Below, piece after piece: positions 1,170 to 14,380 of a stretch of DNA of 64,000 bases. The position numbers were made by a program, and so were the translations under genes. Positions within the stretch are counted from its first letter, which is position 1. Each line of letters begins with the position of its first letter. The notes beneath the pieces were generated by a model. The model saw nothing but the letters and a program-made list of their open reading frames with translations, was not told where the DNA came from and did no database searches. Source of the stretch: a virus; the IMG/VR virus record IMGVR_UViG_3300042868_012782, positions 1-64,000 of that record; one strand, 5' to 3'.

Positions 1170-1446
1170 GATATGCGGGAATGTCTTGCGACAAGCTGCA
1201 CTATGTTTATGCCAATCCTATATCTCAACAGCGCACCGATATATCAATTGCTATAGTTCGGTATTGTACCGCGCCTTTTAGGCGGGTTGCATATACTAGG
1301 ATAGCAAGCGAAAATCTGGGAATCGAGTGCTGCAAGCTGCACTATGTTTATGGCCTAAATAACCAGGGGCGGGAATCCTCCCGCCGCCGATGCACATCTT
1401 ATGGAAAGGCTAGCGAGGTGCAACGCCTTCCTTATGGAGTTGTGAT
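1170..1446 (+). promoter_or_regulatory. Leader module 0 (3 GGGAAT-N14-TGCAC sites + RBS)
   Basis: Motifs at 1177, 1318, 1371; GGAG before ATG 1447. Confidence 0.8.
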
Positions 1447-1713
1447 ATGGCAGCAAGATTTGAGTCAATAAAGGAAGTAGAAATCGAGGCATCCGTGTGG
1501 ACCGTTGAACGGTCCGGCACTTACGAAGTCTGGGGCGATGGTGACGAAGTCACCTTCCAAGTCGAACAAGAGAACGTCTACAAAGACGGAGTCCTGCAAG
1601 AGGACTGGACCTCTGTGGGCGAACTCCTGCCACCGATCACGGATGAAGATATTGATATAGATATGGAAGATGTAGAGAAGTCGAGACTTATGGATCAAAT
1701 ATGCGGCCGATAG
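1447..1713 (+). CDS. Small highly acidic cassette protein
   Basis: RBS GGAG; 88 aa D/E-rich; bounded by modules. Confidence 0.85.
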   Translation: MAARFESIKEVEIEASVWTVERSGTYEVWGDGDEVTFQVEQENVYKDGVLQEDWTSVGELLPPITDEDIDIDMEDVEKSRLMDQICGR

Positions 1714-1731
1714 ACGATCGCTGAGTAGATC

Positions 1732-1993
1732 GGGGCGGGGGGCGAAAGCCTCCCGCCTTTTTTCGTTGGTGGTCCTGGGAATTCTGCGGGTGAAGCTGCA
1801 CTATGGTATGGCCATCGCCTGGCGGCCGCGGCCGTACCTGCCGCGCCTAGCGGGTTAAAATTGTGGGAATAGCAAGCGAGAAGCTGCACTATCTTTCTAG
1901 GCGATTTAACCAGGGCGGGAATCTCCTTCTGGCCGATGCACATCTTATGGAAGGGCTAGCGAGGTTGCGATGCCTACCACATGGAGTTGTGAG
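1732..1993 (+). repeat. Repeat module 1 (terminator + 3 motifs + RBS)
   Basis: GGCGGGGGGC-GAAA-GCCTCCCGCC-T6; motifs at 1777, 1865, 1917. Confidence 0.92.
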
Positions 1994-2155
1994 ATGTGCT
2001 CGTCATGCAATGTGGTCAAGATCAACGGAGTCCGGACTCACGAGTCCGGGTGCCCGGAATCTTGGAGGGAGATCAAGGCATGCTCGGCATGCCGAGAAAA
2101 GTTTCGCCCTAAGGCGAAAAACCAAAAGCACTGCCGGGACTGTCGCATCCGATAG
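1994..2155 (+). CDS. Small Cys-rich (zinc-binding) cassette protein
   Basis: Start placed at ATG after GGAG; three CxxC pairs plus HExGCP. Confidence 0.8.
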   Translation: MCSSCNVVKINGVRTHESGCPESWREIKACSACREKFRPKAKNQKHCRDCRIR

Positions 2156-2176
2156 GGATGCGTCGACAGTAAGGCA

Positions 2177-2526
2177 GGGGCGGGGGGCGAAAGCCTCCCG
2201 CCTTTTTTCGTTGGTATTCCTAGGAATCCCGCGGGTGAAGCTGCACTATGGTATAGCCATCGCCTGGCGGCCGCGGCCGTACCTGCCGCGCTCGGCCGGT
2301 CAATATTGTGGGAATAGCAAGCGGAAAGCTGCACTATGGTATGGCTCCTGCCTGGCGGCCGCGGCCGCATCTGCCGCGCTCGGCAGCCTAGCATAGTGGG
2401 AATAACCGATCTTAAGCTGCACTATGGTTATGGGCTAAATAACCAGGTGCGGGAATCCTCCCGCCGCCGATGCACATCTTATGGAAAGGCTAGCGAGGTG
2501 CGATGCCTACCAAGTGGAGTTTTCAT
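2177..2526 (+). repeat. Repeat module 2 (4 motifs; internal 88-bp subunit duplicated)
   Basis: Same hairpin; motifs ~2222, 2310, 2398, 2451. Confidence 0.92.
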
Positions 2527-2835
2527 ATGACCAAGATCCAAGAAATCGAAAACCTAACAGGTTTTATCGGAAGTCTTCAGGATGGCTATCTAAAAGACAT
2601 CTTTGATGATTTAGGACCGATGATAATCGGGGCGATTCGGTCGGACTTTTGCTGTGTGCCGTACAGGGAGATGCAGCAAACAAAAGCGGATCTCCGACTG
2701 GAGATCCAAACCCTTCAGAAAGAGGCCTCGGATCTGAAGGTCCTGTTGTCTGAAGCAAGACGGCAACAGGAACGACTGAAGACAGAAATAGACGATATAA
2801 GGCGAATTGCTGCGACCATCGCTGCCTGCAGGTAA
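2527..2835 (+). CDS. Cassette protein with C-terminal coiled coil
   Basis: RBS GGAG; heptad-like C-terminus. Confidence 0.85.
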   Translation: MTKIQEIENLTGFIGSLQDGYLKDIFDDLGPMIIGAIRSDFCCVPYREMQQTKADLRLEIQTLQKEASDLKVLLSEARRQQERLKTEIDDIRRIAATIAACR

Positions 2836-2852
2836 CAGGCGAAGGTCGGGCG

Positions 2853-3113
2853 GGGGCGGGGGGCGAAAGCCTCCCGCCTTTTTTCGTTGGTATTCCTGGG
2901 AATCCCGCGGGTGAAGCTGCACTATGGTATGGCTATCGCCTGGCGGCCGCGGCCGTACCTGCCGCGCTCAGCCGGTCGATATTGTGGGAATAGCAAGCGA
3001 GAAGCTGCACTATCTTTCTGGGCGATTTAACCAGGCTGGGAATCTACTGCTGGCCAATGCACATCTTATGGAAAGGCTAGCGGGGTTGCGATGCCTACCA
3101 CATGGAGCTAGTG
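2853..3113 (+). repeat. Repeat module 3
   Basis: Near-identical to module 1. Confidence 0.92.
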
Positions 3114-12206: not shown

Positions 12207-12407
12207 ATGAGATATCAAGTTAAGATTGTAACGACCCACACGATGGAGGTGTCTGCCGACAACCGATTTGAGGCGCTAAGGCAGGCCAAACGCCAGTCAA
12301 AGTACCGGACGGAGCTGGAGAGCTTCGCCCAGGTCCTAGACCAAGACGGGTCGGAGTGGACCGTGAAGGAAACGCCCGTTGCCATTATTTGGCAGGGCAA
12401 GGAGTAA
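12207..12407 (+). CDS. DpnD/PcfM-like small protein
   Basis: RYQVKIVTTHTMEVSADNRFEAL; similar to 6591 and 26513 ORFs. Confidence 0.65.
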   Translation: MRYQVKIVTTHTMEVSADNRFEALRQAKRQSKYRTELESFAQVLDQDGSEWTVKETPVAIIWQGKE

Positions 12408-12478
12408 TAAGGTACGCCAGGGGGGTAGGCGCGGTGCATGCCTCCTGGCTATGTGCGTCGACGCAAGGAGGAAGATAT

Positions 12479-12814
12479 ATGTCTCAAGAGCTACTGAATG
12501 TCGCTGAGGAAATACTTCGCAACAGTTTTACTTCGTGCAATTGCTCGCCTATGGTATGCGATAGCACTTGCACTCATGGTAAGCTGGTGTTGGCTGTAGC
12601 CAACGCCAAGAGCAAAGAAAAGGTCTTTGTGGTCTGGGGGGAACAGCCCAGCAAAGATCAGTCTGTCTGTACATATGAGTTTTCTACTCCAGAGGAGGCG
12701 TGCGCCTTTAAGCTGGGGATCGACGAGAGCCTGGGGTGGGGCGACGCCGTCTACTATTTTACTACCAAAGAAGAGGCGCAAGATTACCTAAAGGAGGTCG
12801 GATATGATGGTTGA
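12479..12814 (+). CDS. Hypothetical protein; C-terminal domain paralogous to 17645..17869
   Basis: AGGAGG RBS; VVWG...YEFS...AFxLG...GW shared. Confidence 0.8.
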   Translation: MSQELLNVAEEILRNSFTSCNCSPMVCDSTCTHGKLVLAVANAKSKEKVFVVWGEQPSKDQSVCTYEFSTPEEACAFKLGIDESLGWGDAVYYFTTKEEAQDYLKEVGYDG

Positions 12815-13097
12815 CCAGAAGCACTACCCCAATCTGGTTGGGGAGATCGACATGGCGGGTAGTCGGTGGGAATATACCGCCATTGGAAACTTTGAGCATG
12901 ACACGCTGTTCGTGTCAGTGAGGCTCCAGAAGAAAGTGGGGCGCGTGTGGCGCATGGTGGCTGGCCCCTATCAATTTCATGACGGCAAACTAGACCGCGG
13001 CGAAGACCAGGACGTGACCTTCACCGAAGACTGCATGGTGCGACTCGAGGCTGCTGTGATCGATGCCATGCACAAGAACTGGCCTTTCGACTTCTAA
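12804..13097 (+). CDS. Hypothetical protein
   Basis: AGGAGG RBS; followed by a terminator. Confidence 0.8.
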   Translation: MMVDQKHYPNLVGEIDMAGSRWEYTAIGNFEHDTLFVSVRLQKKVGRVWRMVAGPYQFHDGKLDRGEDQDVTFTEDCMVRLEAAVIDAMHKNWPFDF

Positions 13098-13119
13098 TTG
13101 TCTAGCCGCCGCGGCGATT

Positions 13120-13673
13120 CCCCAGGGGTTACCCCCTGGGGTTTTTTTATGCCTAGTGGGAACCGCGGTACACAATCTGCACTATGTTCTAGGGCTTTTG
13201 CGCCCGCGGCCCCTGCGTATCGGCCGTGCGGAGCCGGTCGACATTGTGGGAATAGCAAGCAAGAAGCTGCACTATGTTATGGGCAGTGCCATGGCGCCCG
13301 CGGCCGTACTGGCCCTGCGAAGCCGGTCGAACTTGTGGGAATAGCAAGCAAGAAGCTGCACTATGTTTTAGGGTTTTGCGTTCGCCGCCCTGCGGGAATC
13401 TGGCCGCGGTAGCTGCACTAAGTTATTGCCGCATCTGAAGTTGCGTTCCGCAAAATTTTTTTGCCCCCTTAAACATAGTGCAGAATAAAAACCCTATTCC
13501 CGCGGCCTGGGAATGGACCCAGGAGTGCTGCACTATGTTCTTGTGGAGCCAGGGGAGCGCGTGGGAACGCTCGCTTTTCCAATGCACGGCTTATGTAAGG
13601 AAAACGTGCTGAGGCCAACAGGGGGTGGTAATCTTCTGGGCCGACATGCACGACTGATGTAAGGGGGTGGACG
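13120..13673 (+). repeat. Extended module 17 (terminator + ~7 forward + 1 inverted motif)
   Basis: Hairpin CCCCAGGGG...CCCCTGGGG-T7; 5' part nearly duplicates module 15. Confidence 0.85.
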
Positions 13674-13880
13674 ATGTGGGTAGTTGAAATGCTGATCGGT
13701 GACGAGTGGGAGAACGTGTGGTGGGATGATGCCAACGAACCGCTCGCCTTCTCTAGTGAGGAGGAAGCGAAGGAGGCACTGGCCGAACATCTGGCCGACC
13801 AGAAGGAGTCAGTCGAGGAGGGGTTCCTCGAGGACGTGGATTCCCCTGAGATGTTCAGGGTACAGGAGGAGGTGGTATGA
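13674..13880 (+). CDS. Small highly acidic protein
   Basis: 68 aa, strongly D/E-rich. Confidence 0.8.
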   Translation: MWVVEMLIGDEWENVWWDDANEPLAFSSEEEAKEALAEHLADQKESVEEGFLEDVDSPEMFRVQEEVV

Positions 13881-14119
13881 GTAGCGTAATCATCGAGAGT
13901 CGGATAAGGCGGGGCGAGAAGGCCCACCAGTGGGTGGTCACAGAGGTAGCATTCACGCCTGGAGAGGGCGGGGTGAACCTCGAGAGGCCGGTGGTACTGA
14001 GCGTCACCGGATTCCAGAAGGTTCGACTGGAGTCAGTTTTCTGGGCCTTGATGGACAGCCGCGGAAAGTACTTCCACCAGGTCATGGCCGCGGTAACGAG
14101 TCGCGAGGAAGCGATGTAG
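13877..14119 (+). CDS. Hypothetical protein
   Basis: GGAGG RBS; ATGA overlap. Confidence 0.75.
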   Translation: MSSVIIESRIRRGEKAHQWVVTEVAFTPGEGGVNLERPVVLSVTGFQKVRLESVFWALMDSRGKYFHQVMAAVTSREEAM

Positions 14120-14380
14120 CAACGTCCGATAATCATCCTTATGTTGCACTGACCCAGGAGGAACAATGGAGTTCAAGCTGCACGACAGATGTTGGTTGAT
14201 CAGGGGGGGAGAGCGCCGACCAGTGCTGGTGTTCTATATCGACGAAGAGTCCAATAGGATCTGTGTCTATGACACACTGTCGGGCTGGGAGGGATGCGTG
14301 AATCCCGACAGCCTGACTTTCCGAGACGATTAGTTGTGAATTCTCTTGAACGATTGGCGAATCTACCATAGGAGGTTGAC

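Follow-up and report, generated by a model that had tools for sequence, protein, structure and literature searches.

What is the long series of near-identical two-part sites near the left end of a contig from an uncultured lake phage, and which protein reads it? The sites lie in the left 64 kb of the IMG/VR virus record IMGVR_UViG_3300042868_012782 (82.7 kb, estimated to be 56% complete), and this whole stretch of 64,000 nucleotides is called the window here. Each site consists of GGGAAT, a spacer of 14 bases and TGCAC. A first-pass annotation had proposed stacked promoters for a host extracytoplasmic function (ECF) or phage sigma factor, or a dense binding array for a single protein. Working from sequence, we conclude that the sites are very probably promoters of some kind, and the position, orientation, spacing and selection of the sites, together with the arrays of relatives, support the first of these proposals. 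Of the two types of sigma factor, the phage one is favoured: we hold it moderately likely that the reader is a phage-encoded sigma-type factor, with the small sigma-70-family protein sigB ahead of gp1, the product of the gene that heads the array (Table 1).

At the level of the motif, a search of the window for exact GGGAAT-N14-TGCAC gave 63 matches on the + strand and one on the - strand, 64 in all, against 0.04 expected from dinucleotide-preserving shuffles. Allowing one mismatch gave 71 matches for 1.04 expected. The array contains 66 copies on the + strand, 62 of them exact and four with one mismatch. When spacer lengths from 8 to 21 were tried, + strand matches were retrieved at 14 only (63), and length 13 gave one match on the - strand. 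The sequence of the spacer is free, with 43 distinct spacers among the 66 copies. In a set of 21 copies that were more than 45% different outside the half-sites, every position of GGGAAT and of TGCAC carried about 2 bits of information and other positions near zero, apart from about 1 bit at the two bases preceding each element, which gives the patterns (C/G)(T/C)GGGAAT and (G)(C/A)TGCAC.

The copies fall into two sub-classes. Those proximal to an open reading frame (ORF) read A-TGCAC in 18 of 18 cases, followed by N3-T(T/A)(A/T)TG in 14. The upstream, or distal, copies read C-TGCAC in 44 of 48, with TAT next in 43. Distances from copy to copy were 51-57 bp (22 cases), 64-67 bp (four) and 88-90 bp (19), and 68 of the 69 copies were co-directed with the genes. 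These values bear out most of what had been described for the motif: some 65-70 copies with a fixed spacer length, half-sites that stay fixed even in diverged copies while the spacer varies, distinct upstream and ORF-proximal forms, and three classes of distance. The motif had not been noticed beyond about 14.2 kb, and this has to be corrected, with single copies at 16614 and 19113. The former is a GGGAAC variant. Both were returned by a position-weight scan, which also confirmed the one reverse-strand copy at 10406-10382. Beyond the window, the 82.7-kb record contained no further exact copy.

The array is organised in 18 clusters: thirteen with three copies, two with four, one with five and two with seven. 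In the typical cluster of Table 1, the first two copies (P1 and P2) are of the distal type C-TGCAC-TAT and lie 88 bp apart, and the third (P3), 52 bp past P2, is of the proximal type A-TGCAC-ATCTTATGG. A terminator with a T-run is located at most 70 nt upstream of 17 of the 18 clusters, with a strong hairpin that is near-identical between cassettes, and no terminator was found inside any of the 18. On the downstream side, the final copy of every cluster (18 of 18) ends 22-52 nt upstream of an ORF led by a Shine-Dalgarno sequence; these ORFs code for 47-306 amino acids, the minimum set in the search being 35. From this layout, the unit is therefore a terminator, P1, 88 bp, P2, 52 bp, P3, a short leader and one small gene, and the anatomy of these predicted sites is that of promoters. 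Folding of the leader from P1 to the ATG was no better than that of shuffled sequences (z = -1.3), and no Rfam family was found within 1-20000. Among 11 cargo proteins searched against Pfam, two gave matches, GP88-like and DUF7249. The cargo genes probably have host-takeover or anti-defence functions.

Two metagenome contigs (L011 and L027, 95-98% identity) represent strain variants of the phage and were used for orthologous alignments. The half-sites presented one change in 577 bases (0.17%), against 26 in 731 (3.6%) for the spacers and 350 in 8168 (4.3%) for other DNA, and the 14-nt flanks of the sites were changed at 2.1-2.6%. By Fisher's exact test, the half-sites differed from the spacers with p = 4e-6 and from other DNA with p = 1e-9. 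These alignments indicate that the half-sites are under purifying selection.

Strains also differ by whole units, as seen in contigs from four further DNA runs that cover window positions 9400-14400 (X4/X5, X8 and X11; two of the four are apparently one data set). One promoter repeat was deleted, joining 11907 to 11975, and the entire GP88 cassette was deleted, joining 10225 to 11889. Behind the promoter at 12132, a gene of 66 amino acids (12207-12407) was swapped for about 30 other bases, the swap beginning 4 nt past TGCAC, and the promoter at 9656 was followed by other cargo. The breakpoints lie in or beside the conserved regulatory repeats. Judged from these contigs, the putative promoters are the constant part and the genes the exchangeable part.

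To find relatives, sigA homologues on long metagenome contigs were aligned, and the alignment led to 15 IMG/VR loci. The exact motif was absent from all five closest records. Dyad counting retrieved its equivalents in two near-complete relatives: 25 sites in 17 clusters in G004 (145 kb; motif TGAGACAAT...(G/T)GCACT, hexamer GAGACA) and 24 sites in 16 clusters in G005 (149 kb; motif tGAGCCAAAC...CTGCA(C/A)T, hexamer GAGCCA). Every site is on the gene strand, most of them 16-63 nt before small ORFs led by a Shine-Dalgarno sequence, and the arrays lie 22-35 kb upstream of sigB and sigA, as in the window phage. The gap from the hexamer to (T/G)GCA(C/A) is 14 bases in all three phages. When gaps of 11-17 were tried with the core patterns, the 18 sites of G004 were found at 14 only, and the 21 sites of G005 at 14 except two. 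The core common to the three phages is TG(A/G)G-N18-GCA(C/A)T. G005 also has two types of site, distal TGCACT and proximal TGCAAT. Since most genes of the G004 and G005 arrays are served by one or two sites, the stacking was amplified in the window phage. No comparable repeated two-part motif was found in the distant relatives G010, G013 and G014, whose sigA is 30-36% identical; the top repeat of G014 was an 11-bp tandem array near one contig end (2378-2600) and was rejected as a promoter set.

What class of promoter could this be? The sites have two short elements and a fixed-length spacer of free sequence, as expected for an alternative sigma factor, and the spacing in G004 and G005 agrees. 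They also lie co-oriented upstream of genes at the distance of a 5' untranslated region, both in the 18 clusters and for the two outlying single copies (22-52 nt). The conserved cores are about 22 bp apart, centre to centre, and this is the distance between the -35 and -10 elements in sigma-70-family promoters. The motif would then be the -35-like and -10-like core of a phage-specific promoter class. Two classical types were rejected. For the primary sigma-70 promoter (TTGACA-N17-TATAAT), positions 1-20000 contained 13 sites against 14.9 expected, none of them at the motif, and the cross-phage core (T/G)GCA(C/A)T is without the A at the second position that primary-sigma -10 elements need. For sigma-54 (GG-N10-GC), the GG-to-GC distance is 18-19 bases, and the spacer is not shortened in any copy.

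The clade encodes several small, ECF-sized sigma-like proteins, with three or four sigma-like genes. The products of 1-1014, 30287-30814 and 38027-38548 had been put forward as candidate readers; the second and third belong to the sigma-70 family, and the C-terminal domain of the first resembles sigma region 4. The small sigma proteins have about 175-180 residues and regions 2 and 4 only. sigB matched TIGR02937 over nearly its full length (E = 7e-6 in the window, 7e-10 in G004 and 3e-9 in G005). For gp1, no family match was found in Pfam, PHROGs, NCBIfam or a PDB profile search, and Foldseek gave nothing significant. In its structural model, the confident C-terminal part of about 90 residues best matches sigma region 4, with a LuxR-type helix-turn-helix. 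Of these searches, only the structure comparison with VIA-align pointed to sigma region 4: sigma factors were the majority among its 33 best solved chains, at modest Z values of 5-6.5. By profile comparison, the helix-turn-helix of gp1 aligns with that of sigA. Divergent gp1 homologues directly precede the arrays of both G004 and G005. The DNA for the N-terminus of gp1 (window 1-130) is a 12-bp tandem repeat that codes for TVDS repeats, and this is the probable cause of the contig break.

A further sigma-like gene, sigC, was found in the relatives just past the left end of the window contig. It has a Cys-rich insert, is divergent from gp1 and heads the leftward arm; gene orientation suggests that this arm probably carries the structural genes. 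Both sigA and sigC are present in all complete or near-complete relatives examined, including the motif-less G010, G013 and G014, and sigB and gp1 were found in the array-bearing clade only. Since sigA also occurs in relatives without the array motif, it is a less likely reader. Between G004 and G005, identity was 88% for sigC, 78% for sigA, 43% for sigB and 32% for gp1; the fast-changing pair of candidates, sigB and gp1, matches the phage-specific hexamers.

The sites upstream of the candidate readers also fit. Each of the three phages has a conserved site of the form TTGnnn-N18-TAnnnT, equivalently placed, before the four-gene sigB operon, and gp1 of G004 and G005 is preceded by a homologous TTGACA/TTGATT site. 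With these predicted host-type sites, both candidate readers can therefore come from the unmodified host enzyme. We propose that the host holoenzyme would first transcribe the sigB operon, and gp1, from host-type sigma-70 promoters. The new phage sigma, most likely sigB, would then direct the host core polymerase to the stacked sites, and gp1, with its sigma-region-4-like domain, may work together with it. A rigid spacer is a requirement of small two-domain sigmas. Three to seven promoters would fire into one short leader and a single gene, with transcription expected to start a few nucleotides past TGCAC, and the terminator would insulate each cassette from the next. The cassettes would belong to a delayed-early or middle class and be very strongly expressed.

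Several points weigh against this proposal. In region 4 of sigB, the recognition helix hardly differs between the three phages despite their different hexamers, and the case for pairing sigB with the motif comes from only three array-bearing genomes and from absence in three distant ones. The reader could instead be gp1, sigA, sigC or a host sigma. Small genes that form a block close to where the + strand arm begins have the look of an early region, and such regions normally use the host holoenzyme. No RNA runs are listed among those containing DNA of the phage. Finally, the contig is 56% complete, very divergent phage RNA polymerases would evade Pfam searches, and the search for a T7-type polymerase had no positive control.

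The resemblance to an early region leads to the best of the rival explanations, namely that the promoters serve a host alternative sigma of the ECF type and that the cassettes, as genuine early genes, are independent of any phage protein. The array does lie where the rightward gene arm begins, ECF promoters typically have a strict spacer, and GGGAAT resembles the GGAAT/GGAAC -35 element of some ECF sigmas, a resemblance that is a lead only. The typical ECF consensus has an AAC-type -35 and a CGT-type -10, and the comparison with it is mixed: GGGAAT is GGAAT-like in the window phage, but TGCAC is not CGT-like and the hexamers of the relatives, GAGACA and GAGCCA, are not AAC-like. Against a host sigma, these hexamers are not GGAAT-like either. 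Moreover, the invariant hexamer differs in each phage, which suggests co-evolution with a phage-borne factor, the phages carry their own sigma genes, and two candidate readers share the distribution of the motif. The likeness to ECF (group 4) promoters extends to the two-part -35/-10 architecture, the rigid spacer, the two-region sigmas and the GGAAT-like element of the window phage, and no anti-sigma partner was identified here. We regard a host ECF sigma as an unlikely reader, one that keeps some weight.

An extension of the phage-sigma proposal concerns the two sub-classes of site. If distal C-TGCAC-TAT and proximal A-TGCAC-N3-TTATG copies were each read by a different sigma-like factor of the phage, such as sigB for one and gp1 for the other, expression of every cassette would have two phases. 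Another possibility is that the 66 high-affinity sites additionally form a sink that strips host polymerase from host genes. We give this pair of extensions a small probability.

A different role for gp1 would be that of an activator, as in the middle promoters of T4, where a MotA box is combined with a sigma-70 -10 element. Here gp1, or another phage helix-turn-helix protein, would sit on the hexamer and replace sigma region 4, and the host sigma would read the TGCAC-TATnnT area. A phage-specific upstream box at a fixed distance in place of the -35 element would be common to both systems. The sigma-region-4/LuxR-like helix-turn-helix of gp1, its place directly before the array in three phages and its evolution, as fast as that of the hexamers, are all consistent with this role, and the distal copies of the window phage have TATnnT right after TGCAC. 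However, TATnnT is missing from the proximal copies and from the sites of G004, and the part conserved across the three phages is (T/G)GCA(C/A)T rather than TAnnnT. No MotA/AsiA homologue was found, and none was searched for. An activator of this type is quite unlikely.

The missing genome part and the limits of the polymerase searches named above would leave room for promoters of a phage-encoded RNA polymerase, either missed or in the missing part. However, Pfam searches found no canonical beta/beta-prime RNA polymerase domains in G000, G004 or G005, and the near-complete G004 and G005 have the same kind of array. The search with PF00940 (T7-type) was empty as well but is uninformative, because the controls also gave nothing. 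A two-part motif with a free spacer is a sigma signature and argues against a single-subunit, T7-like polymerase, whose promoter is a contiguous block of about 20 bp. A hairpin promoter of the N4 virion-polymerase kind was rejected, with no common inverted repeat among the 43 spacers. This explanation is very unlikely.

Equally improbable is a protein-binding array that titrates sigma factor or polymerase, aids DNA entry or protects DNA: the density is high (66 sites in 12.5 kb) and, from what is generally known of polymerase footprints, sites 51-57 bp apart probably cannot both carry an open complex, but every cluster lies between a terminator and a Shine-Dalgarno-led ORF and is directed at that ORF, in the relatives a gene mostly has just one or two sites, which fits expression and not a sink, and the motif is asymmetric and two-part with a sigma-like distance. 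The earlier suggestions of sequestration, transcription-driven entry and DNA protection are neither needed nor supported.

How does the proposed system compare with known ones? The nearest described promoters for phage-encoded sigma factors are those of phiEco32 and phage 7-11, whose motif was likewise derived from sequence and where host promoters give the first transcripts of the sigma gene (PMC4331800). The SPO1 sigma cascade (gp28, gp33/34) is a second case. In common with phiEco32, 7-11 and SPO1, a small phage-encoded sigma would here redirect the host core polymerase to a phage-specific motif. For 7-11, as for the window phage, the motif was inferred from sequence alone (PMC4331800), whereas about 10 sites were inferred there against 66 in the array here. 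Compared with phage-sigma systems in general, the array differs by its new consensus, the fixed 14-base spacer, the three to seven sites per gene and the three or four sigma-like genes of the clade.

Tandem strong promoters that feed small genes of unknown function, with terminators separating the units, are also known from T7 (A1-A2-A3) and the SPO1 terminal module. Likewise, several stacked sigma-70 promoters are placed before gene 151 of phage 7-11 (PMC4331800, Table 2). Those tandem promoters use the host primary sigma, once per genome or operon, whereas here a non-sigma-70 motif forms a near-identical triplet before 18 separate cassettes. What is new is the consensus with its three natural variants, in an uncultured clade with three or four sigma-like genes, and how extensively and regularly the sites are stacked on exchangeable cassettes of one gene each.

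These results point to a previously undescribed promoter specificity and its probable sigma factor. The three natural variants, GGGAAT, GAGACA and GAGCCA, each with (T/G)GCA(C/A)T 14 bases downstream, would be ready-made orthogonal sigma/promoter pairs if the pairings are true, and would allow a direct test of co-evolution between small sigmas and their promoters. The array would also be a compact architecture, repeated 18 times, by which exchangeable small genes are expressed one by one at a very high level. Because the promoters are recognisable from sequence, this design can be searched for in other phages.

Table 1. Coordinates of the array, its selected sites and the sigma-like genes (window positions unless a relative is named)
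Feature	Coordinates	Strand	Description
Promoter array	1177..13651	+	66 motif copies in 18 clusters; predicted promoters
Typical cluster	3488..3652	+	P1 3488-3512, P2 3576-3600, P3 3628-3652; ORF start 3704
One-mismatch array copies	2222, 13158, 13563, 13627	+	
Intrinsic terminator, example	2852..2891	+	Ends the cassette before it, some 15 nt ahead of the following P1; G+C-rich stem of 13 bp, GAAA loop, T-run
Outlying single copy, GGGAAC variant	16614..16638	+	40 nt upstream of ORF at 16679; position-weight scan
Outlying single copy, exact	19113..19137	+	42 nt upstream of ORF at 19180
Sole reverse-strand copy	10382..10406	-	Distal type, TGCAC-TATG; leftward, within the array between two forward clusters
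gp1	1..1014	+	Heads the array; truncated by the contig start; sigma-region-4-like C-terminus
Host-type sigma-70-like promoter of sigB operon	28887..28916	+	TTGCAT-N18-TATAGT, predicted
sigB	30287..30814	+	ECF-sized sigma-70-family protein; last gene of a conserved 4-gene operon
sigA	38000..38548	+	Clear sigma-70-family protein, regions 2 and 4
sigC	G004 36203-36790; G005 647-1285	- (G004); + (G005)	In relatives, just past the left end of the window contig

DNA of the phage was also present in lake-water and freshwater metagenomes from many studies, and the clade of uncultured lake phages of about 145 kb is widespread. Among cultured phages, neither megablast with the array nor tblastn with sigA gave a match, and a word search of the literature for both half-sites returned primer noise only. 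Searching bacterial genomes with the sigma alignment gave no relative and thus no host or prophage lead, and no tRNA genes were found. The tandem motif pattern had no match in IMG/VR viral contigs beyond the phage's own record. In metagenome contigs, it matched 35 loci, with the phage itself in L011 and L027 only; in the remaining 33, the unit of an ordinary tandem repeat contains one chance match, so they are uninformative on conservation. Searches with single proteins added little: sigA alone found no relatives, the gp1 alignment recovered only G005, the sigB alignment retrieved only short contigs, none of which extends to an array, and the GP88-like cargo protein led to a contig without the motif (L009).

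Five unrelated metagenome contigs (L016, L020, L024, L037 and L042) have in common a repeat family of about 69 bp. Its units contain GGGAAT-N14-TGCAC in a longer conserved context, GTGAC...ATCG GGGAAT ... CTGCAC.GGCCTGAC, either by chance or as a distant analogue. At the ends of G005 (L060 and L067), the 'direct terminal repeat' is an exact overlap of 127 bp. Instead of a physical terminal repeat, this may be an overlap left by the assembly of a circular or permuted map, so a location of the array at a physical genome end is not established.

Within the array, the single reverse-strand copy could drive an antisense RNA or a small leftward ORF. In 18 copies, all of them P2 copies (window 1865-13361), AGCAAG(C) directly follows GGGAAT, and in the arrays of G004 and G005 the same sequence precedes several hexamers by 7-16 nt. 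Either a box shared through ancestry or an upstream element may account for it.

Finally, we observed a second candidate promoter class, (G)GTGTAT(T/A), 28-40 nt before Shine-Dalgarno-led starts of conserved genes. Its sites are at 32398 and 33471 in the window, at 76309 and 77495 in G004 and, in reverse, at 41357 and 42452 in G005, with many more in G010 and G013. The widely conserved sigA or sigC might recognise this putative class.

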